Under the pieces are notes generated by a model. The model saw nothing but the letters and a program-made list of their open reading frames with translations, was not told the origin of the DNA and did not search any database. From positions 19,150 through 83,149 of the forward strand of contig DATJXC010000008.1 in the NCBI GenBank assembly GCA_035500495.1: a DNA stretch of 64,000 nt, in the 5' to 3' direction. Each line of letters begins with the position of its first letter. Within the stretch, counting starts at the first letter, position 1. Both the position numbers and the translations under genes were made by a program. Below are positions 1,887 through 61,899 of the stretch, in pieces. Origin of the DNA: Gemmatimonadales bacterium. Lineage in GTDB: Bacteria; Gemmatimonadota; Gemmatimonadetes; Gemmatimonadales; GWC2-71-9.

Positions 1887-2639
1887 TCAGACTTTGTGGT
1901 AGGTGACACGCGCGGACTCGCTCTTGTCGTCCGCGACGTAGATCTCGAAGTCGGAGAAGAGCGCGGGTGCCTCGCGTTGCAGTACGCGGAGACAGGCGAT
2001 CGCCATGCGACGGATTTCCTGCTCGGCGCCCTCGCCACAACGCAGCTCGAGCATGGTGCGCCACGCACGCGCGTTCGCCGAGACGACGATCTTCGTCTCC
2101 GTGGCGTTTGGAAGCACGCTGCGGGCCGCCTCCCGCGCCATCTTGCGGCGATGGATCTTGTCCTCCACCCAGGCGTGCTTCTTCATCAGAGCTTCGACCG
2201 CCTGCACGTACGCCGACTGCGCGGTCTCCATCTGCCGGGCCCATTCTGCCTCGAGCGCCGCGTCTCCCAGGATCGCCGGCGGCACCACGAAGGCCGCGTG
2301 CGATTCGTCGACGTAGCGCTGCGACAGCTGGGAGTAGCCGAAGCCCGCGCGATGGCGCACCAGCTCGTGGGAGCAGGAGCGCGAGACGCCCTCGATGAGC
2401 AACACGTAGACCGCGTGCTCGATCACCGAGCCGTGCCCCTGCTTCTTTATGTTCTCGAGGTATTCCGCGGTGGAGCGTTGCGCCGGATTGTGCTGGCTCA
2501 TGTAGCAGATGCGGCCCGCGAATTCGGCCAGCCGCTCCCCGTCGGTGGAGTCGCCCTTCCACTGTACCGCCAGATGGGCGGGTTCCACGAATTGCGGGCG
2601 GGCGACGAGGGTGACGCGTGGGGCGCGGAAGATTTCCAT
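1887..2639 (-). CDS. thyX: FAD-dependent thymidylate synthase ThyX
   Basis: 250-aa ORF carrying the ThyX signature RHRAGFGYSQLSQRY (RHR...S.RY). Confidence 0.93.
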   Translation of the reverse strand: MEIFRAPRVTLVARPQFVEPAHLAVQWKGDSTDGERLAEFAGRICYMSQHNPAQRSTAEYLENIKKQGHGSVIEHAVYVLLIEGVSRSCSHELVRHRAGFGYSQLSQRYVDESHAAFVVPPAILGDAALEAEWARQMETAQSAYVQAVEALMKKHAWVEDKIHRRKMAREAARSVLPNATETKIVVSANARAWRTMLELRCGEGAEQEIRRMAIACLRVLQREAPALFSDFEIYVADDKSESARVTYHKV

Positions 2640-2672
2640 GCAGGTGCCAGGGGTCAGGGGTCAGAGGTCAGA
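2638..2672. repeat. Single-arm tandem heptamer array (GGTCAGR x4, plus one degenerate unit)
   Basis: Plus strand reads atgcagg tgccagg ggtcagg ggtcaga ggtcaga. The array spans the stop codon of the FAD oxidase gene (2661-2663), the 21-nt intergenic gap and the thyX start codon. Confidence 0.7.
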
Positions 2673-4250
2673 CGATCGGGCCAGGTCGAGCTTCGGCACG
2701 GCCCAGCCGCCGGATCGCTCGATCTCCCGCAGACGGCGGGCGATGTCATCGGGTATCGGCGCCGCCTCGGGTCCCACCTTTAGGTCCCCGAGCGGCGCCC
2801 AGTCGGCCGGGGGGAGTATAACACCGGGATTCAGGATGGTCAGCGGATCGTACGCGTGTTTCACCCTCGCGAACAGTTCCATCACGCGAGGACCGAAGAA
2901 CCGCTCGAGCACCCCCGCGCGCAACCGGCCATCGCCGTGCTCCCCGCTCGGCGTCCCCCCCAGCCGTTGCAGCAACGCAACGCCATCCTCGTAGAGCCCG
3001 GCCACGTCGTCCCGCCAGCCGGCGCGAGTGACGTCCGCCAACGCGTTGACGTGCACGTGACCATCGCCCGCATGACCGAACAGGGCCACCGGAAGATGGC
3101 GGGCCGCGGCGGCGGTACGTAACCCCGCGATGTAATCGGAAAGCCGGTCGATCGGGACACACCCGTCCTCGATGACCTGGAGCGACCGCCTCGTCTCCGG
3201 AAGTCGGGCCAGGCTCGAGCTGGCTCGACGCCGCACCGCCCAGAGCTCGTCCAGGCCGTGCCGGTCCACGGCGCTGCGCACCTCGAGCACCCCACGCTGC
3301 TGCTGAACCCCCCGTGCCGCGTCCCCCACGACGGCGTGCGCGGCCGACGCCAGCTCTCGCTCGAATTCGACCAACAGCAGGCAGGCCGTCCCGGGGGGTA
3401 CCGCATCGGCGTCCATGAAGCCGAGCAAGGTCCCGTCCAACAGCTCCACCGCCGAGGGGTTGAGCGACAACAGGAAGGGAACGAGGTCCTTAAGCACGGC
3501 CAGGTCGGCGCAGGCAATCGCCAATCCCGCGGCGTCGGGGGGGATCGGCTCGAGCCGCCACTCCACCTGCGTTACGACGGCGAGGGTGCCTTCGGACCCG
3601 ACCAGAAGGTCGATTTCGTCGCCCGACGCGGCGTAGGCGTCGAGCGCGTAGCCGCTTGAGTTCTTCCGGGTTCTGGGAAAGCGGTCGGCCACGAGCCGCC
3701 GCTCATCCGGGCTCAGCACGAACCGCTCTCCGCTTCTCTCTCCCCGCCGCGTCCAACGAATCGCCCCATCGGCACCCACCACCTCCAGCGCCTGGACCCA
3801 TGGTCGCACGCTGCCGTAACGGACCGTCCGCGGGCCGGAGGCGTTGGCCGCCACCATCCCGCCGCAGGTGGCGAACGCGCCCGAGGAGGGATCGGGGGGA
3901 AGCCGCAAGCCGTAGGGCCGCGCGGCGTCGGCGAGCTGCTGCCAGGTGATCGAGGCGCCAGTACGAGCCTGGCGGCGATGCGGGTCTATTTCGAGATCGC
4001 GGAACCCCTGGCTGAGATCGAGGATGACACCTCGACCCACGTTGCCTCCCGGCATCCCGGAGCCCGCGCCCCGAGGGACGAGCGGCGTGCGCTGCTGGGC
4101 GGCCCACCTGATAACGTCGGCGACTTCCTGGGAGGATGCAGGGATGGCGACCGCTTCGGGAACCATCCGATAGATGCCGGCCCCCTCGGCATAGGCGGCG
4201 CGGACGCGTGGGTCAGTTTCGAAGCGAACCTTGGGGATGGGGCGGGTCAC
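2661..4250 (-). CDS. FAD-linked oxidase (GlcD / D-lactate dehydrogenase family)
   Basis: FAD_binding_4-like N-terminus (AVAIPASSQEVADVIRWAAQQRTPLVPRGAGSGMPGG) and an FAD-oxidase C-terminal domain. The Arg/Gly-rich first 59 aa of track ORF 2661..4427 look spurious. In-frame GTG 4250..4248 overlaps the upstream gene's TGA (GTGA). Confidence 0.85.
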   Translation of the reverse strand: MTRPIPKVRFETDPRVRAAYAEGAGIYRMVPEAVAIPASSQEVADVIRWAAQQRTPLVPRGAGSGMPGGNVGRGVILDLSQGFRDLEIDPHRRQARTGASITWQQLADAARPYGLRLPPDPSSGAFATCGGMVAANASGPRTVRYGSVRPWVQALEVVGADGAIRWTRRGERSGERFVLSPDERRLVADRFPRTRKNSSGYALDAYAASGDEIDLLVGSEGTLAVVTQVEWRLEPIPPDAAGLAIACADLAVLKDLVPFLLSLNPSAVELLDGTLLGFMDADAVPPGTACLLLVEFERELASAAHAVVGDAARGVQQQRGVLEVRSAVDRHGLDELWAVRRRASSSLARLPETRRSLQVIEDGCVPIDRLSDYIAGLRTAAAARHLPVALFGHAGDGHVHVNALADVTRAGWRDDVAGLYEDGVALLQRLGGTPSGEHGDGRLRAGVLERFFGPRVMELFARVKHAYDPLTILNPGVILPPADWAPLGDLKVGPEAAPIPDDIARRLREIERSGGWAVPKLDLARSSDL

Positions 4251-4783
4251 GTACCGAGCTTCTTCTGCATGGCCTCCAGCAAACGGTGAGCCAGCTCGTA
4301 CCCCGCCGACGCCTCCGGCACGATCACTTCGAGATCCCGCTCCATCCGGGAAGGGTCGAGGATGGGGCGATACACCGCCTCTACGGTCAGCTGGCTCTTC
4401 CCGGGCGTGTACGGGTCCACCCAACAACGGATCTTGATCGTGGCGAGGAGATCACCTGGGTCGCTCGTCCCTGTGACGCTTTGCCGGGTGGAGGTATTGA
4501 ACCAGGCGGTTTCGACGTAGCCGTCCTGCGGACTGGTCCATTCCACCCGGAGCCCCTCGCCGTTGAGCCAGGCGTCAAGCTCCGGCACCACCTGATCCGT
4601 CGGCGCATTCACGATGGACGTGAGCGCCTGGGGATACGGGAGGAACGCGGGACGGGTGGAGGCGGGGTTGCAGGCGAGGAGAGCCAAAACCAGAGTGCGA
4701 AGTGCGAAGTGCGAAATGCGAAGTGTCCGCTTGGGGCACGAGCCCAATGAGTCACTTCGCACTTCGCACTTCGCATTTCGCAC
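4247..4783 (-). CDS. Putative lipoprotein (function unknown); the true start is probably internal, for example TTG 4747
   Basis: Lipobox LVLALLAC followed by a 140-aa mature region. The listed GTG start (4783) lies inside a heptamer hairpin, and no usable start codon exists downstream of the hairpin. The signal-peptide n-region (RISHFALRT) is encoded by the second hairpin arm. Confidence 0.6.
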   Translation of the reverse strand: MRNAKCEVRSDSLGSCPKRTLRISHFALRTLVLALLACNPASTRPAFLPYPQALTSIVNAPTDQVVPELDAWLNGEGLRVEWTSPQDGYVETAWFNTSTRQSVTGTSDPGDLLATIKIRCWVDPYTPGKSQLTVEAVYRPILDPSRMERDLEVIVPEASAGYELAHRLLEAMQKKLGT

Positions 4784-4784
4784 T
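4694..4784. repeat. Inverted tandem-heptamer hairpin element: (AGTGCGA)4 + 27-nt spacer + (TCGCACT)4
   Basis: Left arm 4694-4725 is agtgcga agtgcga agtgcga aatgcga agtg. Right arm 4753-4784 is cact tcgcact tcgcact tcgcatt tcgcact. 30 of 32 positions are complementary. The element begins 1 nt after the stop of gene 4786..5337. Confidence 0.9.
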
Positions 4785-4785
4785 G

Positions 4786-5337: not shown

Positions 5338-5361
5338 CGCAGATTCCGTCCGAGGTGAGGG

Positions 5362-6249: not shown

Positions 6250-6278
6250 GGTTCTCCCGATGGTCACCCTTGGCAGGG

Positions 6279-7088: not shown

Positions 7089-7089
7089 C

Positions 7090-11571: not shown

Positions 11572-12252
11572 TCACTCGAATCCCGTGGCGCGTCCGCACC
11601 CGATGCAGTACGCCCATCCCACGTCCACTTCGCTACCGCACGCGGGGCACTTCAGCTCGCCGGATGGCGGCTGGCCGCAATGCGGGCAGAAGTTGACCTT
11701 GCGGGACGTGGGAAGGGAGCCGCCGCAGTAGGGGCATTGATTGGGCGCGTGCGCCTCGGTGTCGGCCAGCTCGAAGGTCGGCTCAGAATGGGGAGAGGGG
11801 AGAGGGGAGAGGGAAACCGGCGGGATCGGGTTTTCTGACGTCCAACTGATCGGCTCGCTCTCGTCTTCCGCTTCGGCGGACGCCTCGACCGGCGGCGCGA
11901 ACGCGGCCTGTCCCCGCAGGAATCGCTCGGCCGCCATGCGGTTCACCAGCACGCGGCTGTCGGGAAAGTTCCGGAACAGACCGGTCTCCGGATTGACCGC
12001 CGTGACTTCCCGCTGGAAGCCTTCGCGCACGTCGTCCGGATCGAGGTGCACATAAGACCGCTCACCGGCGAGCAGGCGCAGCACCGTCATCTCGTAATCC
12101 TGATGGCTCGCCACGCGCAGCGTCGAGCGGTTGGAGCGATACGGGACGAGCCGCTCGTAGACCTCGGACGCCGCGAACGGAATGGCGAGCCGCGCGTCCT
12201 TGGCCAGCGCCCGCACCAGCAGCTCGAATAGCCGATCCAGTTCGTCAGGCAT
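11572..12252 (-). CDS. Hypothetical protein with a C-terminal double zinc-ribbon
   Basis: C-terminus CPYCGGSL...FCPHCG...KCPACGSEV...YCIGCG. The linker contains a heptamer-array-encoded segment (PVSLSPLPSPHS). Confidence 0.6.
   Translation of the reverse strand: MPDELDRLFELLVRALAKDARLAIPFAASEVYERLVPYRSNRSTLRVASHQDYEMTVLRLLAGERSYVHLDPDDVREGFQREVTAVNPETGLFRNFPDSRVLVNRMAAERFLRGQAAFAPPVEASAEAEDESEPISWTSENPIPPVSLSPLPSPHSEPTFELADTEAHAPNQCPYCGGSLPTSRKVNFCPHCGQPPSGELKCPACGSEVDVGWAYCIGCGRATGFE
11790..11817. repeat. Single-arm tandem heptamer array (GGGGAGA)3 + GGGAAAC inside a CDS
   Basis: Plus strand reads ggggaga ggggaga ggggaga gggaaac, within gene 11572..12252. A degenerate complementary stretch (ctcgctctcgtcttccgcttc) follows about 40 nt to the right. 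Confidence 0.7.
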
Positions 12253-12270: not shown

Positions 12271-12328
12271 GTACCTCACCCCCTGACCCCCTCCCCGTAA
12301 CCGGAGAGGGGGCCGGGGAGTGAGGTAC
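12271..12328. repeat. C-rich/G-rich imperfect inverted repeat (hairpin) built from heptamer-like units
   Basis: gtacctcaccccctgaccccctcc (12271-12294) pairs with ggagagggggccggggagtgaggtac (12303-12328) at about 21 of 24 positions. It lies between the cupredoxin gene stop (12352) and the zinc-ribbon gene start (12252). Confidence 0.8.
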
Positions 12329-13460: not shown

Positions 13461-13562
13461 ATTGCGGATTGCGGATTGCGGATTGCGGAATAGCTGGTAA
13501 GGCTCGCATCGCCAGTTCGAACTGTCCACTCAATCCGCAATCCGCAATCGACAATCCGCAAT
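13461..13562. repeat. Inverted tandem-heptamer hairpin element: (ATTGCGG)4 + about 40-nt spacer + (CAATCCG)4
   Basis: Left arm 13461-13491 has four perfect ATTGCGG units. Right arm 13531-13562 is caatccg caatccg caatcga caatccg caat. The element lies between the dCMP deaminase stop (13567) and the cupredoxin gene start (13425). Confidence 0.9.
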
Positions 13563-15642: not shown

Positions 15643-16683
15643 TCACCGGACCACGATCGTGCCGGGTTCGCCCGCGACGACGCGCCCGATCACCGCCGCA
15701 ACCGGCGTTCGCTCCCGTTGTAACGCCTTGACGAGCGAGTCCGCGCGACTCTCCGGCACGGCGAGGAGGAGTCCGCCGGACGTTTGGGCATCGGCCAACA
15801 ATACCCGGATCTCGGGCGGGACGTGCTCCGTGAAGCGGACGGTTCCGGTCAGCGCCTCCAGATTGCGCGATGTGCCACCCGGGACGCTCCCCTTGGCGGC
15901 CAGCTCCCCGGCCCGTGGAAACAGCGGCACGTCGGCCGCGATGATTTCCGCCGCCGCGCCACTGGCTCGGAGCAGGCTGTGGAGATGGCCGAGCAGGCCG
16001 AACCCGGTGACGTCGGTAGCCGCATCGACGCCGGTCGCCACCGCGGCGCGAGCGGCCCCGGCGTTGAGCGTCGCCATCACCGCGACGACCGGGGCCAGCG
16101 ACGCGGCGTCGAGCAGGTCGCGTTTCAGGGCGGTCGTCAAGATCCCCGTGCCGATCGGCTTGGTGAGCACCAGCACGTCCCCTGGACGAGCCCCGGCGTT
16201 GGTCACGATGCGGTCGGGATGCACCTCGCCGATCGCGACCATCCCGTATTTCGGCTCCGGATCGTCCACCGAATGCCCGCCCAGCAGGAAGGCCCCCGCC
16301 TCCCGCGCCACATCCGCCCCTCCGCGGAGCACCTCGCCCAGGAGATCGAGCGGCAGTTTTTCTCGAGGCCAGGCGACCAGGTTCAAGGCGAAGAGCGGGG
16401 TCCCTCCCATCGCGTAAACGTCGGAGAACGCGTTCGCGGCCGCGATCCGGCCGAAGTCGTAGGCGTCGTCCACGATGGGCGTGAAAAAGTCCACGGTCGC
16501 CACGATCGCCCGTTCCGGCGCCACCTGAAACACGGCGGCATCATCGCGGCTCGATGCGTCGACCAGGATCCGGGGATCCGTCGCGTGCGGCACGTGACGC
16601 AGGACCTGCGTCAACTCGGCTGGCCCGAGCTTACAGGCTCAGCCGGCGCCGTGCGAGAAGGCCGTGAGGCGATAGGCGGTCAT
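15643..16683 (-). CDS. selD: Selenide, water dikinase SelD, with in-frame UGA (selenocysteine) at codon 15
   Basis: Track ORF 15643..16614 lacks the catalytic N-terminus. Extending upstream in frame gives ATG 16683 and MTAYRLTAFSHGAG-U-ACKLGPAELTQVLRHV, with TGA at 16641..16639. This aligns with the conserved SelD motif SHGAGCGCK, where Cys or Sec occupies this position. Confidence 0.9.
16603..16641 (-). other. UGA-Sec codon plus candidate bacterial SECIS hairpin
   Basis: The mRNA just 3' of the UGA can fold. Lower stem: GCCUGU (16638-16633) pairs with GCAGGU (16609-16604). Upper stem: 7 bp, AGCUCGG (16631-16625) with CCGAGUU (16619-16613). Apical loop: GCCAG. Confidence 0.5.
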
Positions 16684-16700: not shown

Positions 16701-16794
16701 GCAAACGGACAAACAGCAAAGAGCAAAGAGCAATTAACTAGAGAACAACGATCCAGCCTCTTGACCTTCGCTCCTTGCTCTTTGCTCCTTGGCT
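16701..16794. repeat. Inverted tandem-heptamer element: (AGCAAAG-like)5 + spacer + (YTTGCTC-like)4
   Basis: Left arm is gcaaacg gacaaac agcaaag agcaaag agcaatt (16701-16735). Right arm is ttcgctc cttgctc tttgctc cttggct (16767-16794). The element fills the gap between the stop of gene 16797..17120 and the selD start. Confidence 0.8.
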
Positions 16795-27572: not shown

Positions 27573-27583
27573 CCGATTCCGAG

Positions 27584-27612
27584 TTGCATTTCTCTGTCTA
27601 AGTGTTTAGTTT
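27584..27612 (+). promoter_or_regulatory. Candidate sigma70-type promoter upstream of gyrA (TTGCAT-N17-TAGTTT)
   Basis: Lies in the only AT-rich island of the gyrA upstream region (27584-27625). The hexamers were read by eye. Confidence 0.3.
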
Positions 27613-27642
27613 TTATAAACTTAGGACGCTGTATGGCCGTTG

Positions 27643-27677
27643 CCCTGACCCCTGGTCCCTGACCCCAGGCCCCTGCC
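27643..27677. repeat. Single-arm tandem heptamer array (CCCTGAC-like x5) in the gyrA 5' leader
   Basis: ccctgac ccctggt ccctgac cccaggc ccctgcc, ending 4 nt before the gyrA ATG. The complementary strand is GGGG-CCT-GGGG-TCA-GGG-ACCA-GGGG-TCA-GGG. Confidence 0.8.
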
Positions 27678-27681: not shown

Positions 27682-30225
27682 ATGACCGCACCTAACGCCC
27701 GCGAACGCATCCTCCCGCGCCTGATCGAGGATGAGCTGAAGGAATCGTTCCTCGACTATTCGATGAGCGTCATCGTGCAGCGCGCGCTGCCCGATGTGCG
27801 CGACGGCTTGAAGCCCGTCCATCGCCGGATTCTCTACGCGATGAACGAGCTGGGACTGCTCCCCGGTCGGCCCTACAAGAAGAGCGCCACGGTCGTGGGC
27901 GACGTGCTCGGCAAGTACCACCCGCACGGTGACCTCGCGGTCTACGACTCCCTGGTTCGCATGGTGCAGGAATTTTCCTTGCGCTACCCGCTCATCGATG
28001 GGCAGGGGAACTTCGGCTCGGTGGACGGCGACTCCGCGGCGGCCTATCGCTACACCGAGGCGCGGCTCACGCGGGTCGCCATGACGATGTTGGAGGACAT
28101 CGAAAAGAACACCGTCGATTTCGTCCCCAATTTCGATGACCGGCTGCAGGAGCCGACGGTCCTCCCGGGCAGACTCCCGAACCTGATCGTCAACGGCTCG
28201 TCGGGGATCGCGGTCGGCATGGCCACCAACATTCCGCCGCACAACCTGGGCGAGACGGTGGCCGCGATCGTCCACCTGGCGGACCACCCCGACGCCGGGA
28301 TCAAGGACCTCCGCAAGTTCATCAAGGGACCCGATTTCCCCACCGGCGGCATCATCTACGGGCGAGAGGGGATCAAGGAGTGCTACGAGAAGGGGCGCGG
28401 CCGCATCGTGATCCGGGCGCGCGCACAGACCGAAGAGGTCAAATCCACCGGGCGGTATCAGCTCGTCGTCACCGAATTCCCCTACCAGGTGAGCCCCGAG
28501 CGGGTGATCGAGCAGATCCGCGATCTGGTGCTGGGGAAGAAGCTCGAGGGGATCTCCGACCTGCGCAACGAATCCGATCGCGAGGGGATCCGGGTCGTGA
28601 TCGAGCTGAAACGCGACGCCGTGCCGGCGGTCGTGTTGAATCAGCTCTACAAGCACACCCAGATGCAGGTGACCTTCGGCGCCATCATGCTGGCCCTGGT
28701 GGACGGCGCGCCGAAGGAGATGGCGCTGAAGGAGCTGCTCCAGCACTTCATCGATCACCGCCACACCGTCATCACCCGCCGGACCCAGTTCGACCTCGAC
28801 CGGGCGCTCGACCGGGAGCATATCCTCGAAGGCTTGAAGATCGCCGTCGACAACATTGACGAGGTCATCAAGATCATCCGCAAGTCGAAGGACACCCCCA
28901 CCGCCGATGCGGCTCTGCGCAAGCGCTTCAAGTTCTCCGAACGGCAGTCGGCCGAGATCCTGAACATGCGGCTTGCGCGCCTCACCGCCCTCGAGATCTC
29001 CAAGCTCGAGGCCGAGCTGAAGGACGTGCGCCGGTTCATCAAGGAATGCCGGGAGATTCTGGCCTCGAAGCCCCGCCGCATGAAGATCCTCAAGGAGGAA
29101 CTGACGGAGGTGGCGCACGGCTTCGGCGACGAGCGGCGTACCGAGATCGTGGCCGACCAGGGCGAGTTCTCGATCGAGGATCTGATCGCCGAAGAGGACA
29201 TGGTCATCACCGTGTCCCACTCGGGCTACATCAAGCGTTTGCCGGTTTCGTCGTATCGCCGGCAGCGGCGCGGCGGGCGGGGGGTGACCGCCGCGCACAC
29301 CAAGGAAGACGACTGGGTCGAGCATCTGTTCATCGCCTCGACCCACGACTATATGATGTTCTTCACCCAGGACGGCCAATGCTACTGGCTGAAGGTGCAC
29401 GAGATCCCGCAGGCCGCCCGGGCGGCGCGCGGCAAGCCGATCGCGCACTGCGTGGCGATGAAGCCGGAGGAACGGCTCGCGGCGCTCGTCCCCGTGCGCG
29501 AGTTCTCCGAGGAGCAGTTCCTCTTCTTCGCGACCAAGAAGGGCGTGGTCAAGAAGACCCGGCTTTCGGAGTTCGGCAACCCGCGCTCCAACGGCATCCG
29601 GGCGATCAACATCGAGACCGGCGACGAGCTGATCGACGTCCAGGTCACCGACGGCAAGAACGACATCGTGCTGGCCACGCGCCGCGGGATGAGCATCCGG
29701 TTCCATGAGCAGGACGTGCGGGACATGGGCCGCGCGGCGACCGGCGTGTGGGGGATTTCGCTCGACAAGAAGGACGCCTGTATCGATCTCGTCGTGATTC
29801 GCCGCGCCTCGACGCTGCTCGCCGTCACGGAAAAGGGCATGGGCAAACGCTCGGAGCTCGACGAGTATCGGGTGCAGCACCGCGGCGGCCGCGGCATCAT
29901 CACCCTCAAGCAATCCGACAAGACCGGGGACATCGTCGCCCTGAAGGAAGTGCTTCCCGAGGACGAGCTGATGATGATCACCAAGAAGGGAATCATGATC
30001 CGGGTCCCGGTGGACGGGATCCGCATCTCCGGGCGCAACACGCAGGGGGTCCGTGTCATGAACCTCACTCCCGGAGACCTGGTGGTGGACGTGGCGCGGG
30101 TCGTGAAGGAAGAGGAGGAGGACGCGGGCGCGGAGGACGAGTCCGAGGAGGCCCCCCCCGCCTCCCCGAGCCCCGCGACGACTGCCGCAGCGCCCCGGAA
30201 GGCCCGGGCCCCGGCGAAGCGGTGA
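27682..30225 (+). CDS. gyrA: DNA gyrase subunit A
   Basis: 847-aa ORF with canonical GyrA N-terminus ([33 protein letters not shown]), C-terminal beta-pinwheel repeats and an acidic tail. Confidence 0.97.
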
Positions 30226-37543: not shown

Positions 37544-37614
37544 CGGTACGCTGGGGGTGGGGGCGCCGTCGCGTGGGACGCCCGGCGCCCCCACCCCCAG
37601 CGTACTGTCGCTGC

Positions 37615-38937
37615 CTAGTGCCTGACGCGCTGTTCTACGATCCACGCCCGCGCGCGATCCAGCACTGCGTCCGTGCCCGCCTGAAACTCGCTCACCTTCT
37701 CATCGACCTTGATATCCGGCGCCAGGCCGCGCCCGTTGATTTCGGTTCGGTCGGGCAGCTCTTCACGGGTGATCGTCACGCGCAGACGCCAGTCTCGGTA
37801 AAGGGGAATTTCGCTGACCTGGCCGGTCGCTCCGGCGCTCGCGTGTCCGACGATCGTACCCCGCCCGGCGTTCCGAAACGCCGCGAGGAAATCCTCCGCC
37901 GCTCCGGCGGTGCGGGATGACGCGAGCACCGCGACGGGGCCCGTGAATCGGGGCTTGTCCTGCCGCGGCTGGATCGTGTCCGGTGGGATCGCCAGCCACA
38001 GAAAACTTGAGTCCGCACCCCCTTCGTCGCTGCGGTACAAGGGACGATAGACGGCGGTCTGCCATCGCGAGCCGACGAACGGTTTGCTGGCCAGGCGGGC
38101 GAGCAGCTGGTAGGCGATCTCCCGTCCACCGCCGGTGCCGCTGTTGTCGCGCAGGTCGATGATCAGCCCGTGGACGCCGTCCCAGGTCGGGAAGGCGTGG
38201 TCGATCTGCCGGATCACCTCGGGGTCGCTGAAGCTGGACAGATGGAGGACCGCCGTGCTGTCCTGCAGGCGGACGATGGCCAGGGCCGGTGGGTCGAACG
38301 GCCAGGGCGCGCCCTCGGCGATGGTCCGGGTGAGGCTCGCCCCACGGGCATCCATGCCCTGCGCCTGGAGCTGGAGCTGGAGGGCCGTGCCGCGCTCCCC
38401 GTCCAACAGGTGCGCGACGGCGCGATCCCACCGCGCGTCCGCCGTCCCGGCGCCGATCTCGGGGAGAATCGAATCGCGGATCCACTGGTCGGCCGGGATC
38501 CCCTGGACTGAGACGACCTCGGCGAGTCGTTCGGGGCGCGCGATGCTGGTCTCGTCGTTTTCCGTATAGTCCGTGATGAACGGACGCCCCTCGACGCTCA
38601 CGAGGGCGAGGGGCGGCCGCGCCAACTGGACCGCGACACGCGAGGGAGGGATCACCGCCGCCTGGCCGTCATTGAGCAGCGCAACGAAGCGCCGTAAGCG
38701 GCGGTAATAGAGGAGGTCCGGCTGGCGCTGGGCGGCCTGGCCGAGCAGGGCGGCGATGCCGGAGTCCAGGTCGGCGCGTACGCGGTCGCGCCCGGCGTAG
38801 TTATAGTGCGCTTCGGACCAGAGGGCGGCTGCGAGCCGAGCGCGCTCGACCGGGGTGAGCGTTTGTTGGCCCGCGCTCGTGGCTGGTCCCACGAGTCCGA
38901 GGAGCACGGCTCCCCACGAGGACCATCGGAGCGGCAT
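37615..38937 (-). CDS. S41-family peptidase (tail-specific protease-like), secreted
   Basis: Signal peptide MPLRWSSWGAVLLGLVGPATSAGQQ and an S41 core (LIIDLRDNSGTGGG, VAVLASSRTAGAAEDFLAAF). Confidence 0.8.
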   Translation of the reverse strand: MPLRWSSWGAVLLGLVGPATSAGQQTLTPVERARLAAALWSEAHYNYAGRDRVRADLDSGIAALLGQAAQRQPDLLYYRRLRRFVALLNDGQAAVIPPSRVAVQLARPPLALVSVEGRPFITDYTENDETSIARPERLAEVVSVQGIPADQWIRDSILPEIGAGTADARWDRAVAHLLDGERGTALQLQLQAQGMDARGASLTRTIAEGAPWPFDPPALAIVRLQDSTAVLHLSSFSDPEVIRQIDHAFPTWDGVHGLIIDLRDNSGTGGGREIAYQLLARLASKPFVGSRWQTAVYRPLYRSDEGGADSSFLWLAIPPDTIQPRQDKPRFTGPVAVLASSRTAGAAEDFLAAFRNAGRGTIVGHASAGATGQVSEIPLYRDWRLRVTITREELPDRTEINGRGLAPDIKVDEKVSEFQAGTDAVLDRARAWIVEQRVRH

Positions 38938-40189
38938 GGCGATAATCTATCTGCTTCTTCTTCTCTCGCCGCAGGTATTGCTGTACCTGTACCTGCGGGA
39001 GCGCCTCCCCGATCCGTCACGTCCCGGGCGGGTGCGTCTCGTCCGGCTGAGTCTCGCCATCGTCTTCGTCGTCTTCAACCTGCCGTGGCTCGTCGTCCTG
39101 CGTCGCATGCTGTCCGGGTCGGTGTGGGGGGTCGGCCGCGTCCCCTATCTCGCGCCCTGGATCGCGTGGCAGCTGCTCGGCTGGGTGTTTTGCGCGCTGG
39201 TCGCGGTGTACGTGATCGGGAAGAGTCTGGTGTGGGTGGGTCAGCGGCTCGTCAGGCTGGGGAGAGGGGAGAAGGGAGAGGGGGGAGGGCCTGCAACGGC
39301 GCGAACGCCTTCCCTCTTCCCTCTCCCCTCTCCCGTCTCCCGGATTACGCGGCGGCGCTTCCTCGCGACGGCCACCTATGCATATGCCGGTGCCGGGCTC
39401 GCGCTGTCAGGCTATGGCATCTGGGACGCCGAGCGTCTGCCGGATGTGACGCGCACGACCCTCTTCCTTCCCGGCCTGCCGCGCGCCTTCGACGGGCTGC
39501 GGGTGCTCCACCTGTCGGACGTGCACGCCGGGGTCCACATGGAGCGGGACAAAATGCAGGCGATCGTGGCGCTCGCGAACGCGGAACGTGCCGATCTGAT
39601 CCTCCAGACCGGCGACATGATCGACATCTCGCCCGCCTATGTTCCGGAGTACGTTCGCGCCTTTCGCGACCTCTCCGCTCCCCTGGGCGTCGTCACCTGT
39701 CTCGGCAATCACGATCGCTACACCGGCGAGACGATCGTCGTGAAGGGGGTGCGGGACGCCGGTCAGATCTTCGTCAAGAACTCCGCGCACCTGATCGAGC
39801 GGGACGGCGCCGTTCTGGCCCTCCTGGGAATCGACGACCCGCACGCCTGGACCGCCGACGATCCACAGCACGGCGACATCGACCTGGCGTTGCGCGCGGC
39901 GCCGAAAGAGGCCTACCCGATCCTGCTGGCCCACCGGCCGGGTGCGTTCGATGGGGCGGCGCCGCGCGGCATTCCGCTCACGTTGGCGGGGCACATTCAC
40001 GGCGGGCAGATCTACGTTCCGCTCTTGCGGTGGTCGGCGGGGAGCCTGATCACGAAGTACGTGATGGGACACTTCCGGCAGGGTTCGAGTCAGCTGTACG
40101 TGAGCCGGGGCATCGGGGTCGTCGGCGTGCCGATCCGGTTGTTTGTGCCGCCGGAGATCGCCCTGCTGCAGCTGCGGACGGCTGTCTAG
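38936..40189 (+). CDS. Membrane-anchored metallophosphoesterase (YkuE/YaeI-like calcineurin-fold)
   Basis: N-terminal TM segments and a Tat-like TRRRFLATATYAYAGAGLA. Motifs are LHLSDVHAG, TGDMID, LGNHD, LAGHIHGGQ. The start is uncertain, and an 84-nt heptamer hairpin sits in frame between the TM region and the RRRF motif. Confidence 0.8.
   Translation: MAIIYLLLLLSPQVLLYLYLRERLPDPSRPGRVRLVRLSLAIVFVVFNLPWLVVLRRMLSGSVWGVGRVPYLAPWIAWQLLGWVFCALVAVYVIGKSLVWVGQRLVRLGRGEKGEGGGPATARTPSLFPLPSPVSRITRRRFLATATYAYAGAGLALSGYGIWDAERLPDVTRTTLFLPGLPRAFDGLRVLHLSDVHAGVHMERDKMQAIVALANAERADLILQTGDMIDISPAYVPEYVRAFRDLSAPLGVVTCLGNHDRYTGETIVVKGVRDAGQIFVKNSAHLIERDGAVLALLGIDDPHAWTADDPQHGDIDLALRAAPKEAYPILLAHRPGAFDGAAPRGIPLTLAGHIHGGQIYVPLLRWSAGSLITKYVMGHFRQGSSQLYVSRGIGVVGVPIRLFVPPEIALLQLRTAV
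39259..39342. repeat. Inverted tandem-heptamer hairpin element inside a CDS: (GGGGAGA)4 + 18-nt spacer + (TCTCCCC)5
   Basis: Left arm is ggggaga ggggaga agggaga gggggga ggg (39259-39289). Right arm is ccttccc tcttccc tctcccc tctcccg tctcccg (39308-39342). Total 84 nt, i.e. 28 codons, translated as GRGEKGEGGGPATARTPSLFPLPSPVS. Confidence 0.9.
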
Positions 40190-42063: not shown

Positions 42064-43238
42064 TAGCTCCACGTCGTCCCGAACAGGAACTGTCCGCCCT
42101 CGCTGCCCCAGCCTCCACCGATCACGACGATTGTATTGCGGCCGATGCGGAGCATCGCTTCCGCGCCACCGGATTGGTGCAGCCCCTCGGTGGTCAACCG
42201 GAACCCCTCGGCCTCCGTGAACACGCGGCCGGCGTCCCAGAAGCCGACGATCTTGAACTCGAAGATCGCCGGCGCGTTGATCAGGGCCCAGCGCGCCTCG
42301 AGCCCCCCCACCAGTTTCCCGGGACCCGCGAACCGCGAATCGTAGTATCCTCGCAGCGAGCTGTATCCCCCCAGGGCGATCGTCGGCCGCTGGGTGCGCT
42401 CGATCGTCTGCATGAGCGAGATCTCCGAGGTGCCGGTGATCTCCTCGCCCGCGATCCGGCCCGCCAGGATCAGGCGCGGGGTCGGGTTGACGTAGCCCTG
42501 CAGCCTGACCGTCGTGCGGTGGTAGTGCTGCCCGGCGGCGTAGAGCGCCTCGACCGCTCCTCCACGGTGCGGGTCGAGCTCGTTGTCACGCGCGTCCAGG
42601 ACCAGCCCCCCCCGCGCCGCCAGATCGGAAAACGGACTGCCGTCGATGACGCCGAGTGCGGCGTCGTGCTGGAACTGGCTGGTGCCCGGCAATTCCCGGA
42701 AGGTCGTGTGCTCGTAGACGGCGCCGACCAGCACGCGCAGCGGTCCGATGATGCGCCGTTGCACATTGAGGCGGCCCAACTGGGTAGTCCGGCTGACGGA
42801 AAAGAAATAGGGACTGGTGCTCGTGACGCTGTCCGCGACGTGCTGGGTAGCGTTCCCGATCCCGTAGTAGCCGAGGCGGTTCGCCCGGGCCGCGGTGAGA
42901 GAGAGGCCGAGGCGCCAGCCGTCCCAGTACGCCGGGGCGTCCGCGTCGAGATCCAGGTAGTAGCTCCCGGCAGTGCTGGCGCCACCCTGGATGCGGAGCG
43001 ATGCCGACCACGGCTCCGGGCGGCGGTAATCGGCGATCGGCTGGTAATAAGAGAAGTAGCCGGCGAGCCACCACTGATCGACCGAGCTGTAGTAGAAGTA
43101 CGGGGTGACGGTATAGTCCCAAGCTGGCCTCACGTTCGCCTGCTGTGCCACAGCCGGCGTGGTGAGCGCAATCGCGCCGGCGACGAGGCGCGAAATGCGA
43201 AGTGCGAAGTGCGAAGTAGAAATGGAAGGTTCTTCCAC
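42060..43238 (-). CDS. Omp85/bacterial surface antigen (D15)-family outer-membrane beta-barrel protein
   Basis: Signal peptide ending AVA-QQ, SSLRGYYDSRFAGPG and FWDAGRVF motifs, and a C-terminal aromatic residue (TTWSY). The GTG start at 43238 is the only usable start upstream of the signal peptide. Confidence 0.8.
   Translation of the reverse strand: MEEPSISTSHFALRISRLVAGAIALTTPAVAQQANVRPAWDYTVTPYFYYSSVDQWWLAGYFSYYQPIADYRRPEPWSASLRIQGGASTAGSYYLDLDADAPAYWDGWRLGLSLTAARANRLGYYGIGNATQHVADSVTSTSPYFFSVSRTTQLGRLNVQRRIIGPLRVLVGAVYEHTTFRELPGTSQFQHDAALGVIDGSPFSDLAARGGLVLDARDNELDPHRGGAVEALYAAGQHYHRTTVRLQGYVNPTPRLILAGRIAGEEITGTSEISLMQTIERTQRPTIALGGYSSLRGYYDSRFAGPGKLVGGLEARWALINAPAIFEFKIVGFWDAGRVFTEAEGFRLTTEGLHQSGGAEAMLRIGRNTIVVIGGGWGSEGGQFLFGTTWSY
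43190..43217. repeat. Single-arm tandem heptamer array (GCGAAAT + GCGAAGT x3) inside the 5' end of the Omp85-like CDS
   Basis: Same unit as the 4694-4784 hairpin. On the coding strand it reads ACTTCGC x3 and encodes TSHFALRIS, the n-region of the signal peptide (codons 8-16). Confidence 0.85.
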
Positions 43239-53481: not shown

Positions 53482-53483
53482 CG

Positions 53484-53539
53484 CAGGGAGCAGGTGTCAG
53501 GTGCCGGGTGTCAGCCTATCCGCCCTACCCCTGACCCTA
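53484..53539. repeat. Heptamer array (CAGGTGY x4-5) followed by a partly complementary C-rich segment
   Basis: cagggag caggtgt caggtgc cgggtgt cagccta, then ccctacccctgacccta. It fills the convergent gap between the serA stop (53481) and the MCP stop (53537). Confidence 0.6.
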
Positions 53540-55783: not shown

Positions 55784-58192
55784 ATGCCGCCGGTCCCCAC
55801 GTACGATCCGCAGGCCATCGAGGCCACCTGGCAGCAGCGCTGGGCCGAGGGCCACATGAACGAGCCGGATCTCGATCATCCGAGGCGGCCGTTCTTCAAC
55901 CTCATGATGTTCCCCTACCCGTCGGCCGAGGGGCTGCACGTCGGCAACCTGTTCGCGTTCACCGGTGCGGACATCTACGGGCGGTTCAAGCGGCTCCAGG
56001 GGTTCGACGTGTTTCAGCCGATGGGGTTCGATGCCTTCGGGATCCACTCGGAGAATTTCGCGCTGGCCACGGGCACCCATCCGTCCCTGCTGATCCCGAA
56101 GAACATCGAGAACTTCCGCCGCCAGCTGCGGCGCTTCGGGGGGATGTTCGACTGGCGCCACGAGCTGGCGACGACCGATCCGGCCTACTACAAATGGACC
56201 CAGTGGCTGTTCCTGCAGCTCTACAACGCCGGCCTCGCCTACAAGAAGCGGGCGGCGGTGAACTGGTGCCCCAGGGACAAGACCGTGCTCGCCAACGAGC
56301 AGGTCATCAATGGACACTGCGAGCGGTGTGACGCGCTCGTGGAGCAGCGCTTTCTCGATCAGTGGTTCTTCCGGATCACCGACTTCGCCGAGCGTCTGCT
56401 CAGCGACCTCGACACCCTCGATTGGTCGGCGTCCACGGTCGCGCTGCAACGCAACTGGATCGGCCGCAGCACGGGGGCCGAGCTTGCCTTCGAGACCCCG
56501 GCGGGGACGCGGATCGCGGTGTTCACGACGCGCCCCGATACGATTTTCGGGGCCACCTACCTGGTGCTCGCCCCGGAACACCCGCTGGTCGAGGAGCTGA
56601 CGGCGGCCGAGCAAAAGACGGCCGTCAAGGCGTACCAGCGGGACGTCCAGGCCAGAGACGTAGTCTCCCGCCGGGTCGGCGACAAGACCAAGACGGGCGT
56701 GTTTCTCGGCTCCTATGCCCGGAATCCCGCCACGGGGGACGGGATCCCCGTCTGGATCGCTGATTACGTGCTGATGGAGTACGGCACCGGGGCGATCATG
56801 GCGGTCCCCGGGCACGACAAGCGGGATCACGAATTCGCCACCCAGTTCCAGCTGCCGATCCGCCAGGTCGTGCAGGTCCCGGGCGAGCCGCTGCCGTCGG
56901 TTTCCGAAGAGGGCACCCTCGTCAACTCCGGGTCGTTCGACGGGTTGTCGTGTCGGGAGGGGGCGCGCCGCATCGTGGCCTGGCTCGAGCAGAAGGGTGC
57001 GGCGACGTCGCGGGTCCAGTACCGGATTCATGACTGGTGCATCTCCCGCCAGCGCTACTGGGGGCCGCCGATCCCCATCATTTACTGTGACGGCTGCGGC
57101 ACCGTCCCCGTCCCCGAGCAGGATCTCCCGGTGGTGCTGCCGGCCATCGAGGACTTCAAGCCCGATGACACCGGCGTCTCGCCGCTGGCGCGACACGCCG
57201 AGTGGTATTTCGTGAAGTGCCCACGCTGCGGGAAACAGGGCCGCCGCGAGACCGACGTCTCGGACACCTTCCTGGACTCGTCCTGGTATTTCCTGCGCTA
57301 TCCCTCCACTGAATTCGCGGATCGGGCATTCGACCCGGCGCGCACCAAGACCTGGCTTCCCGTCACCTCTTACATCGGCGGGAACGAGCACGCCGTGCTG
57401 CACCTGCTCTACTCCCGCTTCATCACCATGGTGCTGCACGACCAGGGGATGCTGGGCTTCGATGAGCCGTTCCCCCGGTTTCGGGCCCACGGTCTGATCA
57501 TCAAGGACGGCGCCAAGATGTCCAAGTCGCGGGGCAACGTCGTCGTCCCCGATGCCTACATCAAACGCTGGGGGGCGGATGCCTTCCGGATGTACCTGAT
57601 GTTCCTTGGGCCGTTTCAGGAAGGGGGCGACTTCCGCGACGAAGGAATCACGGGAATCCGGCGCTTTCTCGATAAGGTGTGGGTACTCACTCATGAGGCA
57701 TTACAGGCCGCTCCGGCGGAATTGCCACCCCCGGTCGTCCGCAAGCTCCATGAGACGATTCGCAAAGTCACGGCGGACACCGAGAGTCTCGACTACAACA
57801 CCGCCATCGCGGCGATGATGGAGTACGTCAACGAACTGCGCGGTGCGAAGTGCGAAGTGCGAAGTGCCGTGGAGCCGCTGGTCGTCATGCTGGCACCGTA
57901 CGCTCCTCACATGGCCGAGGAGCTGTGGTCAGCGCTCGGCGGGAAGGGTCGTTCCGTGCTCGACCAGGCGTGGCCCAGTTACGATGAAAAGCTGGCTGCG
58001 GCCGGAGACGTAGAGATCGCGGTGCAGGTGAACGGCAAGCTGCGCGGCCGGCTGATGGTGCACCGGGGCACGGGCCAGCAGGAGGTCGTGACCCGGGCTC
58101 AATCCGACGAGAGCGTGAAGCGGTTCGTCGATGGCAAGGAAATCAGAAAAGTGGTGTTTGTTCCGGATCGGTTGGTGAATCTGGTGGTGTGA
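55784..58192 (+). CDS. leuS: Leucyl-tRNA synthetase
   Basis: 802-aa class I aaRS with PYPSAEGLHVGN (HIGH-type) and KMSKSRGN (KMSKS), plus a CP1 editing domain. Confidence 0.97.
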   Translation: MPPVPTYDPQAIEATWQQRWAEGHMNEPDLDHPRRPFFNLMMFPYPSAEGLHVGNLFAFTGADIYGRFKRLQGFDVFQPMGFDAFGIHSENFALATGTHPSLLIPKNIENFRRQLRRFGGMFDWRHELATTDPAYYKWTQWLFLQLYNAGLAYKKRAAVNWCPRDKTVLANEQVINGHCERCDALVEQRFLDQWFFRITDFAERLLSDLDTLDWSASTVALQRNWIGRSTGAELAFETPAGTRIAVFTTRPDTIFGATYLVLAPEHPLVEELTAAEQKTAVKAYQRDVQARDVVSRRVGDKTKTGVFLGSYARNPATGDGIPVWIADYVLMEYGTGAIMAVPGHDKRDHEFATQFQLPIRQVVQVPGEPLPSVSEEGTLVNSGSFDGLSCREGARRIVAWLEQKGAATSRVQYRIHDWCISRQRYWGPPIPIIYCDGCGTVPVPEQDLPVVLPAIEDFKPDDTGVSPLARHAEWYFVKCPRCGKQGRRETDVSDTFLDSSWYFLRYPSTEFADRAFDPARTKTWLPVTSYIGGNEHAVLHLLYSRFITMVLHDQGMLGFDEPFPRFRAHGLIIKDGAKMSKSRGNVVVPDAYIKRWGADAFRMYLMFLGPFQEGGDFRDEGITGIRRFLDKVWVLTHEALQAAPAELPPPVVRKLHETIRKVTADTESLDYNTAIAAMMEYVNELRGAKCEVRSAVEPLVVMLAPYAPHMAEELWSALGGKGRSVLDQAWPSYDEKLAAAGDVEIAVQVNGKLRGRLMVHRGTGQQEVVTRAQSDESVKRFVDGKEIRKVVFVPDRLVNLVV
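57843..57868. repeat. Tandem heptamer array (GTGCGAA x3 + GTGCC) inside the leuS coding sequence
   Basis: gtgcgaa gtgcgaa gtgcgaa gtgcc encodes G-AKCEVRS-A in a length-variable surface region preceding the conserved LAPYAPH segment. The unit is the same as at 4694-4784 and 43190-43217. Confidence 0.85.
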
Positions 58193-58271
58193 TTGCGGAT
58201 TGTGGATTGCGACTTGCGGATTGAGATGACCCACCATTGGAATCCGCAATCCGCAATCCGCAATCCGCAAT
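58192..58271. repeat. Inverted tandem-heptamer hairpin element: (ATTGCGG-like)4 + 17-nt loop + (AATCCGC)4
   Basis: Left arm is attgcgg attgtgg attgcga cttgcgg attg. Right arm has four perfect aatccgc units plus aat. It begins at the last base of the leuS TGA and ends 1 nt before the stop of convergent gene 58273..59385. Confidence 0.9.
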
Positions 58272-58272
58272 G

Positions 58273-59385: not shown

Positions 59386-59418
59386 GAAAGCAAGATAGGG
59401 GGCCGGAGGGCAAGTTAC

Positions 59419-59490
59419 TAGCTGGCAATACGTTACACTTAGCTGTCAGGTCTCACCCTTCAGCGGTCAGCTAAGCTGATAGCTGACAGC
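59419..59490. promoter_or_regulatory. Cluster of four TAGCTGNCAG-like motifs (three direct, one inverted) in a divergent promoter region
   Basis: TAGCTGGCAA 59419-28, TAGCTGTCAG 59440-49, cggtcagcta 59464-73 (rc TAGCTGACCG) and TAGCTGACAG 59480-89. The last two form an 11-nt-arm palindrome around AGCTGA. Direct copies start 21 and 40 bp apart. Confidence 0.45.
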
Positions 59491-59542
59491 CGATACCTGA
59501 AAGCAGAGTGCGACCATTTCTGTAGTACAGACATCTCAAACT

Positions 59543-60660: not shown

Positions 60661-60689
60661 CCGAGCTTGGAAAGGACAGGCACCGAATC

Positions 60690-61742: not shown

Positions 61743-61803
61743 AACGGGAAACGAAACGAACGACGGGGACCAGGCGTAGGTAACCGGTCACGCGTTGTTG
61801 TCG

Positions 61804-61858
61804 AAGAACAAGGAGCAGGGAGTACGCCCCCTCAGCGTGCCGACTGCTCCTTGGTCTT
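61804..61858. repeat. Hairpin (15-nt arms, 14/15 complementary, 25-nt loop) followed by TTTT; probable terminator for the PDZ gene, built from heptamer-like units
   Basis: aagaacaaggagcag (61804-18) pairs with ctgctccttggtctt (61844-58), then tt. Confidence 0.6.
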
Positions 61859-61861
61859 TTC

Positions 61862-61899
61862 CCCCTGTCGAGCTCGCCCTCTCCCTGCTCCCCGCTCCC
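61862..61899. repeat. C-rich period-7 array (cctctcc ctgctcc ccgctcc ...) abutting the stop codon of the M14 peptidase gene
   Basis: CTCC recurs at 61881, 61888 and 61895 (period 7). The complement reads GGGAGCG GGGAGCA GGGAGAG, related to the GGGGAGA unit. Confidence 0.55.

Follow-up and report, generated by a model that had tools for sequence, protein, structure and literature searches.

Tandem arrays of 7-nt units are known from GC-rich Xanthomonas, where about 186 arrays of the heptamer GGGAATC have been described. These arrays are 89–93% intergenic, they lie near or overlap the stop codon of the upstream open reading frame (ORF), and in 70–75 cases convergent inverted pairs are formed (Rehm 2015, PMC4692102). 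More broadly, heptanucleotide simple sequence repeats (SSRs) are stated to be in general excess among prokaryotes (PMC4679880 and PMC4692102, both citing Mrazek et al. 2007). Here, we describe heptamer arrays, some of them inverted so that they form hairpins, in 64,000 nt of a soil bacterium of the order Gemmatimonadales (GenBank assembly GCA_035500495.1, contig DATJXC010000008.1, positions 19,150 to 83,149), which we term the window. The window has a GC content of 65–70% and lies within a 93-kb short-read metagenome contig (ENA ERZ27256576 k141_983980). Its leucyl-tRNA synthetase (LeuRS) is 74–80% identical to the LeuRS of Gemmatimonadales metagenome-assembled genomes.

The window arrays resemble the little-studied Xanthomonas class and are not a new kind of element. 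Both have 7-nt units, typically in about four copies, in a GC-rich non-cyanobacterial genome. Both are mostly intergenic and near an upstream stop codon, with many convergent pairs in which the G-rich strand comes first, and both keep their location between related species while their length and sequence vary. The initial annotation of the window knew of no inverted heptamer arrays in such a genome, but the Xanthomonas pairs beside stop codons are a precedent (PMC4692102). The two differ in that Xanthomonas has one dominant unit that can form a G-quadruplex, whereas each genome here has several unrelated unit families, and most of these cannot. Also, the arrays described here show complete turnover of units between relatives, include whole hairpins within coding sequences, and are from the phylum Gemmatimonadota, for which our literature search found no description of heptamer repeats. 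The phenomenon is real and lineage-wide, although its novelty was overstated and its description as non-coding was partly wrong. The new observations include the sharing of units between unlinked loci of a genome, the absence of most elements from relatives at ~81–83% DNA identity, and a copy number that is constant among close strains. Those most worthy of further study are a rule for the polarity of the arms, the birth of arrays between overlapping stop codons, and the synonymous homogenization of an array within the LeuRS gene. We judge the chances to be about even that the arrays arose from a mutational process that acts across the lineage and fills unconstrained DNA, with some of them co-opted at gene ends, rather than being one functional element.

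The STRR repeats of heterocystous cyanobacteria have CCCCAGT-type units, among others. Like the TAACTGA repeats of Beggiatoaceae (PMC4679880), they are dispersed, mainly intergenic tandem heptamers in 2–6 copies, but the units of both are fixed, nearly always direct (inverted in 1 of 170 sets), and mostly just upstream of start codons, and their lineages and GC contents differ from those of the window. The window comes from a Gemmatimonadales host, and its units differ from the STRR units that we know of. The REP/BIME elements of enterobacteria protect mRNA 3' ends and bind gyrase. They are hairpins that are scattered outside genes, where operons end or where convergent genes meet, and they are the best functional analogy. 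However, all REPs of a species follow one consensus of ~35 nt, and RAYT transposases are linked to them, whereas the window elements are built in tandem and share no palindrome consensus: their spacers are unrelated, their arms fall into several families, and unit monomers are not enriched beyond the arrays. (The last result also rules out the units being dispersed genomic words.) No Pfam family for RAYT (Y1 transposase) appears in the gene lists covering ~62 kb of the 93-kb contig. As for MITEs, we saw no target-site duplication at the filled and empty sites that we compared, and the bodies of the elements are unrelated. Finally, canonical intrinsic terminators have a short GC-rich stem, a loop of 3–8 nt, and then a U-tract, and a scan for their consensus flagged none of the heptamer hairpins. 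The window arrays are not STRR, REP/BIME, MITE, CRISPR, or canonical terminator sequences. In-frame tolerance within genes, where repeats add or replace surface or disordered segments, is shared with the palindromic elements (RPEs) of Rickettsia and with Borg repeats (PMC9879509). RPEs, however, are a conserved mobile family of 100–150 bp, and Borg repeats are direct, with lengths selected as multiples of 3, whereas with the 7-nt unit found here, the frame is preserved by total length alone.

Period-7 arrays in the window

To find arrays, we used Tandem Repeats Finder (TRF) and a separate scan for at least 3 copies, with 20 dinucleotide shuffles of the window as the control. The scan found 11 arrays with a period of 7, as compared to a mean of 0.1 in the shuffles. 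Periods 5, 6, and 8–15 gave 0–1 arrays each, so the enrichment is at period 7 only. TRF agreed, with period-7 calls at 2648, 4694/4753, 11790, 13461/13531, 16710/16765, 39259/39312, 43190, 53491, 57832, 58191/58241, and 61872. This bears out the core of what the initial annotation had proposed, a family of dispersed heptamer arrays. From its list of loci, five clear inverted arrays stand (4694–4784, 13461–13562, 16701–16794, 39259–39342, and 58192–58271), but two others (12271–12328 and 61804–61858) are hairpins without heptamer periodicity. Among its single arrays, 27643–27677 is the conserved leader of gyrA, with a period of ~14, and 53484–53539 is a weak inverted array. A 27-bp hairpin (37544–37607) and a degenerate inverted array (59440–59512) had been overlooked.

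The five inverted arrays fold with a minimum free energy (MFE) of −29 to −66 kcal/mol on both strands (z of −3.7 to −10.9), with stems of up to ~30 bp. Single-arm arrays are unstructured on folding. As had been proposed, the spacers of the inverted arrays have no mutual similarity, and some units are found again at unlinked loci (GCGAAGT at three loci, and ATTGCGG and GGGGAGA at two each). With CAGGGGT and AGCAAAG, there are at least five unit families in the window, and only GGGGAGA and CAGGGGT contain G-tracts. Identical units are found in 12% of pairs of loci from within a genome, as compared to 1.4% of pairs between genomes and 0.4% for shuffled (composition-matched random) units. Counting units that are at most 1 base apart, the sharing within genomes is significant (P = 0.001, Fisher test). 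A search of the whole window against Rfam 15 gave no matches at the gathering threshold, and scans for tRNA and tmRNA found none.

We compared the window to other genomes at three depths: the same species (99.7% identity), sister species (81–83% DNA identity), and the family level. The same-species contigs (L209, L212–L214, L216–L219, and L221) are 99.6–99.9% identical to the window and come from other samples and assemblies (JGI, ENA, and Logan). The sister species are L082, L083/84, L206, and L208, at ~81–83% DNA identity, and L204 is a further relative. As the window is from a short-read metagenome contig, one might suspect an assembly or sequencing artifact. This is next to impossible, because identical elements, unchanged in length, are present in independent contigs of the same species, which stem from five other samples and from three sources of assemblies. 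Furthermore, reading frames are uninterrupted throughout the arrays in coding sequences, and every element is shorter than one read pair.

The elements of the window are as follows (MFE in kcal/mol):

2641..2672: single array, (CAGGGGT) in ~4 copies, which overlaps the stop codon (2661-2663, minus strand) of an FAD-oxidase gene and occupies the 21-nt gap that precedes the start of thyX (2639); unstructured
4691..4784: inverted array, (AGTGCGA)x4.6, 27-nt spacer, (TCGCACT)x4.6, beginning 2 nt past the DUF2231 stop; MFE −65.7/−64.9, z about −10.5
11786..11813: single array, (GGGGAGA)x3.4, within the sequence that codes for a Zn-ribbon protein (11572-12252, minus strand), encoding the Pro/Ser linker ..PVSLSPLPSP..
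12271..12328: near-perfect hairpin of 58 nt, C-rich arm first, not heptameric, 23 nt past the cupredoxin stop; MFE −45.6/−55.4
13461..13562: inverted array, (ATTGCGG)x4.1, 41-nt spacer, (CCGCAAT)x4.6, 4 nt past the deaminase stop and 36 nt ahead of the cupredoxin start; MFE −55/−58
16701..16794: inverted array, (AGCAAAG)n / (CTTTGCT)n, 31-nt spacer, 2 nt past the stop of a 107-aa gene and upstream of selD
27643..27677, plus strand: C-rich gyrA leader, period ~14 (TRF), conserved in L208, no structure on folding; probably outside the fast-evolving heptamer family
37544..37607: perfect 27-bp hairpin (GCTGGGGGTGGGGGCGCCG.., period 6, G-rich arm first) filling a convergent gap; MFE −75
39259..39342: inverted array, (GGGGAGA)x4.4, 19-nt spacer, (TCTCCCC)x4-5, wholly within the coding sequence of a metallophosphoesterase (38936-40189, plus strand, 417 aa), linker GRGEKGEGGGPATARTPSLFPLPSPVS
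43190..43217: single array, (GCGAAGT)x4, minus-strand codons 8-16 (TSHFALRIS) in the signal peptide of an Omp85-family protein (gene call of 392 aa from 43238)
53484..53539: weak inverted array, (CAGGTGT)x3 / CCCTGACCC, filling the serA/MCP convergent gap; fold z = −0.7, no better than shuffles
57837..57867, plus strand: (GTGCGAA)x3.5 in the LeuRS coding sequence, encoding the loop RGAKCEVRSA
58192..58271: inverted array, (ATTGCGG)x4.7, 17-nt spacer, (CCGCAAT)x4.4, exactly filling the LeuRS/VIT1 convergent gap; MFE −54/−48
59440..59512: degenerate inverted array of GTCAGCN-type units, located between VIT1 and the ECF-sigma gene, which are divergent, with a conserved promoter-like block on each side
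61804..61858: terminator-like hairpin without heptamer periodicity in the PDZ/M14 convergent gap, followed by TTTT
61862..61899: degenerate array, (GGGAGCN)n on the minus strand, adjoining the M14 peptidase stop; TRF score 33-44; missing in L082 and L083

The hairpin at 12271..12328 is tied to the family by its location, not by its architecture.

Placement relative to genes

With corrected gene models, 6–7 of the 11 strict arrays are intergenic, though no more than 4.6% of the window is intergenic. The other 4–5 loci are wholly or partly coding, so not all of the elements occupy non-coding gaps. Gene calls and homologs put at least four loci (11786, 39259, 43190, and 57837) inside coding sequences, and a fifth (4694–4784) is at least partly coding. 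These arrays encode a loop of LeuRS, linkers in the metallophosphoesterase and the Zn-ribbon protein, and parts of the signal-peptide regions of the Omp85-family protein and a lipoprotein. Arrays lie within coding sequences only in segments that are hypervariable among homologs. For example, the linker of the metallophosphoesterase, which is between its membrane domain and a conserved SRRRFLA segment, is hypervariable in 12 homologs, and the linker of the Zn-ribbon protein is hypervariable in L204 and L206 (and identical in the independent contig L209). We had considered that 39259–39342 is an element of a divergent promoter region, or that it encodes the N-terminus of a Tat signal, but the alignment of homologs shows a 417-aa gene, which rejects the first idea and supersedes the second. 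The lipoprotein ORF (4783..4247, minus strand, a gene call of 178 aa) runs through the array at 4694–4784, whose 3' arm encodes the n-region of the signal peptide (..RISHFALRT), immediately ahead of the lipobox. (The peptide SHFALR arises from an (ACTTCGC)n array in the n-regions of two unrelated exported proteins, as the Omp85-family protein has it as well at 43190–43217. Both of these arrays occur in degenerate form in sister species, L206 and L208.) For annotation, this means that some hairpins are coding sequence and that an intergenic "gap" can be repeat throughout.

The intergenic elements mostly start 0–6 nt past the upstream stop codon. The initial annotation had given 0–3 nt as typical of the elements. 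From the element to the next start codon, 18–95 nt remain, or 40–65 nt to either side if the gap is divergent. A hairpin is present in each of the four convergent gaps that are at least 50 nt long, with strong folding at 37544, 58192, and 61804 and weak folding at 53484–53539. In relatives (L006, L007, L009–L012, L045, L082, L083, and L208), the stop codons of convergent genes commonly overlap (CTAG or GCTAGC), which leaves no intergenic DNA, and therefore any terminator between such genes must sit within the opposite gene.

These placements could mean that the elements are selected RNA structures: bidirectional terminators or terminators without a U-tract, stabilizers of 3' ends, or hairpins for translational coupling, with heptamers as the fastest evolutionary route to a long stem. 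We consider this unlikely, though it merits serious weight. Besides the convergent gaps and the closeness to upstream stops, the extreme stability of the hairpins on both strands points this way, as does the conservation of the hairpin at 61804 with compensatory changes in its stem (the stems of the L082 and L083 orthologs differ, and L082 has a run of T6). Also on this side, a scan for the terminator consensus, which flagged no heptamer hairpin, gave totals of canonical terminator-like sites at the level expected by chance. And in L206, the start codon of the lipoprotein gene lies within the 5' arm, beside a TAATG overlap of stop and start. In contrast, one hairpin of −66 kcal/mol is inside a coding sequence, the most persistent site of an inverted array is between two divergent promoter-like blocks and is probably not transcribed, and most relatives manage without the elements. 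Most elements have no U-tract (61804–61858 has only TTTT), and single-arm arrays are unstructured. We also asked if G·U pairs make the sense strand more stable than the antisense strand, as selection on the RNA should, and found no trend (5 vs. 3). Because of these findings, a role as terminator or 3' stabilizer, which had been suggested for the elements at large, is not general. A terminator or insulator at the convergent gaps only is plausible, given the hairpins there, the PDZ/M14 hairpin with its compensatory changes and T-run, and the chance-level number of canonical terminators. (There is one convincing intrinsic terminator downstream of thyX, at 1786–1800 on the minus strand, with CCGTGC-ACC-GCACGG and then T7, so this lineage can use U-tract terminators.)

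Turnover among relatives

Between strains of the same species, none of the arrays changes in length, and the hairpins are nearly free of single-nucleotide polymorphisms (SNPs). As the copy number is constant at 99.7% identity, the arrays are not hypermutable on short time scales, and we reject the idea that they are contingency loci (SSRs for phase variation). What does change is the sequence of the array in LeuRS, which is GGTGCGAAATGCGAAGTGCGGAGCGCC in sister strains and GGTGCGAAGTGCGAAGTGCGAAGTGCC in the window. The 3 differences within 16 nt are synonymous and leave the peptide unchanged, and each of them makes the window allele a perfect (GTGCGAA)3 (P ~ 7e-5 for at least 3 SNPs in the segment). 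This is homogenization at the DNA level, with no visible effect on the protein.

The sister species show presence or absence of whole elements, which is one of the two kinds of variation that the initial annotation had suggested looking for in orthologous regions; the other, polymorphism in the number of units, does not occur at 99.6–99.9% identity. The elements at 58192, 53484, 37544, 16701, 13461, and 2641 are missing from relatives at ~81–83% identity, where the stops overlap (CTAG) or abut the next gene. At the 2641 site, stop and start overlap in L206 (GCTGATGG). The hairpin at 37544 is identical in L221 and missing from L208, where both stops overlap (GCTAGC), and the element at 53484 is missing from L082 and L083. 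At 16701, the entire ~95 nt, including the spacer, is additional relative to L204 and L206, with a short degenerate remnant in L206. At 13461, relatives have a gap of 34–38 nt, which in L206 includes a lone GGATTGCGG, while a strain at 99.8% identity is the same as the window. (L204 likewise lacks the elements at 16701 and 13461.) The LeuRS/VIT1 gap, which is filled by 58192..58271, is 3–15 nt in 11 relatives, and L004 and L008 have an inverted GCACGGA element there. Overall, ~55 kb of syntenic sequence from one relative contains 2 arrays, as compared to 11 in the window.

Other sites show intermediate or alternative states. The 12271 site has three states in three genomes: a 3-nt gap in L204, a direct (CCGGGAA)x4 array in L206, and the hairpin in the window (identical in L209). 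L206 has a weaker version of the arrangement at 4691, with TAATGCGAAGTGCGAG and a degenerate (CTTCGCN)4 at the start of the lipoprotein gene, and L208 has a degenerate (CTTCGCN)n in the same place as the array at 43190. At 39259, L208 and L210 have different sequences that are also G-rich and then C-rich, and the L208 version folds at −54 kcal/mol. Because single-copy or degenerate units occupy the same sites in relatives, a local origin seems likely.

At the family level, we examined 53 Gemmatimonadota loci around LeuRS (900 kb) and, as controls, 27 loci from outside the Gemmatimonadota (502 kb). The Gemmatimonadota loci contain 36 period-7 arrays, as compared to 3–15 for other periods, and the control loci contain none with a period of 7. 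The units differ from genome to genome. In LeuRS, the length of the loop is kept while its 3–4 units change in concert (GGGAGCA, GGGAGTC, GGGAAGC, AGTGCGG, or GTGCGAA). As loop length is conserved across the clade, the array in LeuRS is not an insertion. Between VIT1 and the ECF-sigma gene, the orthologs of 59440–59512 are hypervariable: ~10 relatives have inverted or direct heptamer arrays there with different units, and yet the arms stay complementary. On either side of this core (59386–59542; orthologs in L002–L053) is a conserved block, which is CAAGTTCCTA..GGTAA.TACTTA on the VIT1 side and GCGAC..N16..GCATCTAAC.TTTCGGAC-ATG on the ECF-sigma side. These blocks resemble divergent promoters or operators, and mRNAs that start from them would be near-leaderless. 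Unusual forms of the arrays were also seen: nested palindromes with two heptamer units in L059 (2387–2507 and 8230–8359; outer GTGAACG, inner GTGACCA or GGTGAGG), a direct array of 15 copies in L009 (13527–13633; CGTGGGG/CGTGCGG), and, in the LeuRS loop of L007, a G-run that is expanded in frame (period 9).

A very different explanation for turnover is a dedicated or mobile system: either a REP- or MITE-like non-autonomous element that is mobilized in trans, or an enzyme that extends the 3' ends of a break with G-rich heptamers. In the latter case, the joining of the two extended ends would give (unit)n - filler - (reverse-complement unit)n. We find such a system improbable. It would account for whole elements at sites that are empty in relatives, for identical units at unlinked loci of one genome, and for unique spacers, which are like filler DNA. 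If a G-rich strand were added to the 3' ends on either side of a break, the G-first order of the arms (see below) is exactly what would be predicted. Also, the window genome has five times more arrays than a relative, which resembles a burst. But the sites that we compared showed neither a target-site duplication nor terminal inverted repeats nor a conserved core, there are seeds at orthologous sites, each genome has several unit families, and the gene lists spanning ~62 kb of the contig include no transposase, RAYT, or reverse-transcriptase family. The LeuRS units differ between genomes by single steps, which fits gradual drift. A single mobile element can be rejected, given the unrelated spacers, the absence of target-site duplications at these sites, and the seeds in relatives; the initial annotation was right that this is not one mobile sequence.

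Arm polarity and the origin of the arrays

All inverted heptamer elements of the Gemmatimonadota loci have the G-rich version as their 5' arm. A general scan for hairpins found 16 G-first and 0 C-first among stems with a period of 7. For other stems, the counts were 13 G-first and 3 C-first in the Gemmatimonadota and 1 and 6 in the controls. (So the long hairpins of the control loci, L046–L081, mostly have the C-rich arm first, 6 vs. 1, which is the reverse of the 29 vs. 3 G-first in Gemmatimonadota.) We also scanned metagenomes for (GCGAAGT)3 and found it in at least 119 contigs with a GC content of 27–74% and with up to 14 copies (L085–L203). Hence, this unit is not specific to Gemmatimonadota. 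Among the 119 matches listed, 107 have a single array; the remaining 12 have inverted pairs, from unrelated contigs, and are G-first without exception. The unit contains GCGAAG, which is the core of the very stable d(GCGAAGC) mini-hairpin. As G-first order is seen in convergent, co-directional, divergent, and coding contexts, the polarity is intrinsic to the palindrome and is not imposed by neighboring genes. Nor can stability explain it, because the thermodynamics of a stem are identical for either order of the arms. For the same reason, selection on RNA structure offers no account of the polarity.

The elements might instead be sites that function as DNA: cruciforms or sinks for supercoils, BIME-like gyrase sites, or Chi-like arrays of G-rich heptamers. 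Several known Chi sites are G-rich 5–8-mers. Heptamers that face the fragile center of a palindrome might stop RecBCD or AddAB after cleavage, and as a matter of geometry, an exonuclease that starts from a central break would read the G-rich strand 5' to 3' in both directions if the element is G-first. The elements also occur in convergent and divergent gaps, where transcription-driven supercoiling accumulates. This seems very improbable to us, as the units vary by locus and genome and so provide no single recognition sequence, the (GCGAAGT)n matches are mostly single-armed, and locations in coding sequences fit poorly.

We return to a mutational process that fills unconstrained DNA, which would include several steps. 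First, slipped-strand replication would amplify short sequences in 7-nt steps. Second, intramolecular template switching (fold-back of the nascent strand, with correction of quasi-palindromes) would make the inverted copy, and would keep the arms complementary as the unit drifts. Third, short conversion-like events would homogenize the units within an array and probably also between the arrays of one genome. Fourth, arrays would survive only in unconstrained sequence: between stops, from a stop to the next ribosome-binding site, between divergent promoters, or where coding segments tolerate them, as in surface loops, linkers between domains, and the n-regions of signal peptides. Finally, hairpins of 25–32 bp at gene ends would fold in RNA from either strand and probably act as REP-like barriers: they could block 3' exonucleases, be pause sites or insulators between convergent genes, or possibly be substrates for RNase III. 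The confinement of enrichment to period 7, in the window and across the lineage, and the restriction of coding arrays to hypervariable segments favor this process, as do the turnover among relatives, the concerted change of units, and a polarity that does not depend on neighboring genes. The specificity for period 7, the turnover, the homogenization, and the placement are shown by the data, and the fold-back origin and the role in RNA are our inference. Of the roles and mechanisms that had been suggested at first, a hairpin-templated, repeat-generating mechanism fits the evidence best. Template-switch mutagenesis at quasi-palindromes, in which one arm of an imperfect palindrome is copied onto the other, has reportedly been established by Ripley and by the Lovett laboratory for hotspots of point mutation in E. 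coli and phage T4. This reaction would keep arms complementary without selection. It is not known to produce heptamer palindromes that are dispersed in a genome, or to have a G-first polarity.

Several findings weigh against this account. Local slippage does not explain identical units at unlinked loci of one genome, or how elements of 80–95 nt with a unique spacer arise where relatives have 0–15 nt. Copy number is constant among strains. Arms that stay complementary across ~10 genomes, along with hairpins in all of the larger convergent gaps, could mean selection on structure. The G-first polarity would need a further cause, perhaps a greater propensity of G-rich single strands to fold back. 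Also, our sample of Gemmatimonadota is only ~1 Mb, all of it around a few genes. As the mutational model leaves unit sharing, the sudden appearance of large elements, and polarity unexplained, both selected RNA structures and a reaction that writes repeats keep some probability as explanations.

We also considered a polar, possibly enzyme-assisted process that writes G-first heptamer palindromes and spreads a genome's preferred units to unlinked loci, including essential genes such as that for LeuRS. It might proceed by fold-back synthesis that begins at G-rich nascent 3' ends, or by the addition of repeats at break ends. Although we regard a polar writing process as distinctly unlikely, it would be an unrecognized bacterial mechanism that makes hairpins, intergenic spacers, and protein linkers de novo, and it would be common to Gemmatimonadota, Xanthomonas, and the many organisms that have (GCGAAGT)n pairs of the same polarity. 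Heptanucleotide repeats are the commonest long class of SSR in many bacteria. The comparison at three depths shows arrays that are born between overlapping stops, are homogenized without change to the protein, and obey a strict polarity of the arms. If polarity reflects how the arrays are made, then it points to a specific reaction of replication or repair that could be reconstituted. If it reflects function, then it points to an unusual class of gene-end hairpin, without U-tracts, in a poorly studied phylum.

Some other features are of separate interest. First, selD, an AIRS-family gene downstream of 16701–16794, contains an in-frame TGA (..SHGAG-U-ACKLG..; ~16614–16669, minus strand), and this TGA is conserved in both L204 and L206. 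The gene actually begins at the ATG near 16669 and is therefore cut short by simple ORF callers. Second, the AT-rich block upstream of gyrA (27573–27642) is highly conserved (..TCTAAGTGTTTA.TTTTTATAAACTTAGGAC..), is shared with L208, and contains the inverted repeat TAAGTGTTTA/TATAAACTTA. It is probably the promoter or an operator of gyrA. Third, most of the 153 differences between L221 and L220 fall in the first ~600 nt (gyrA, window ~28936–29535), while the strain is otherwise 99.6% identical. Such clustering suggests a tract of recombination from a diverged donor.

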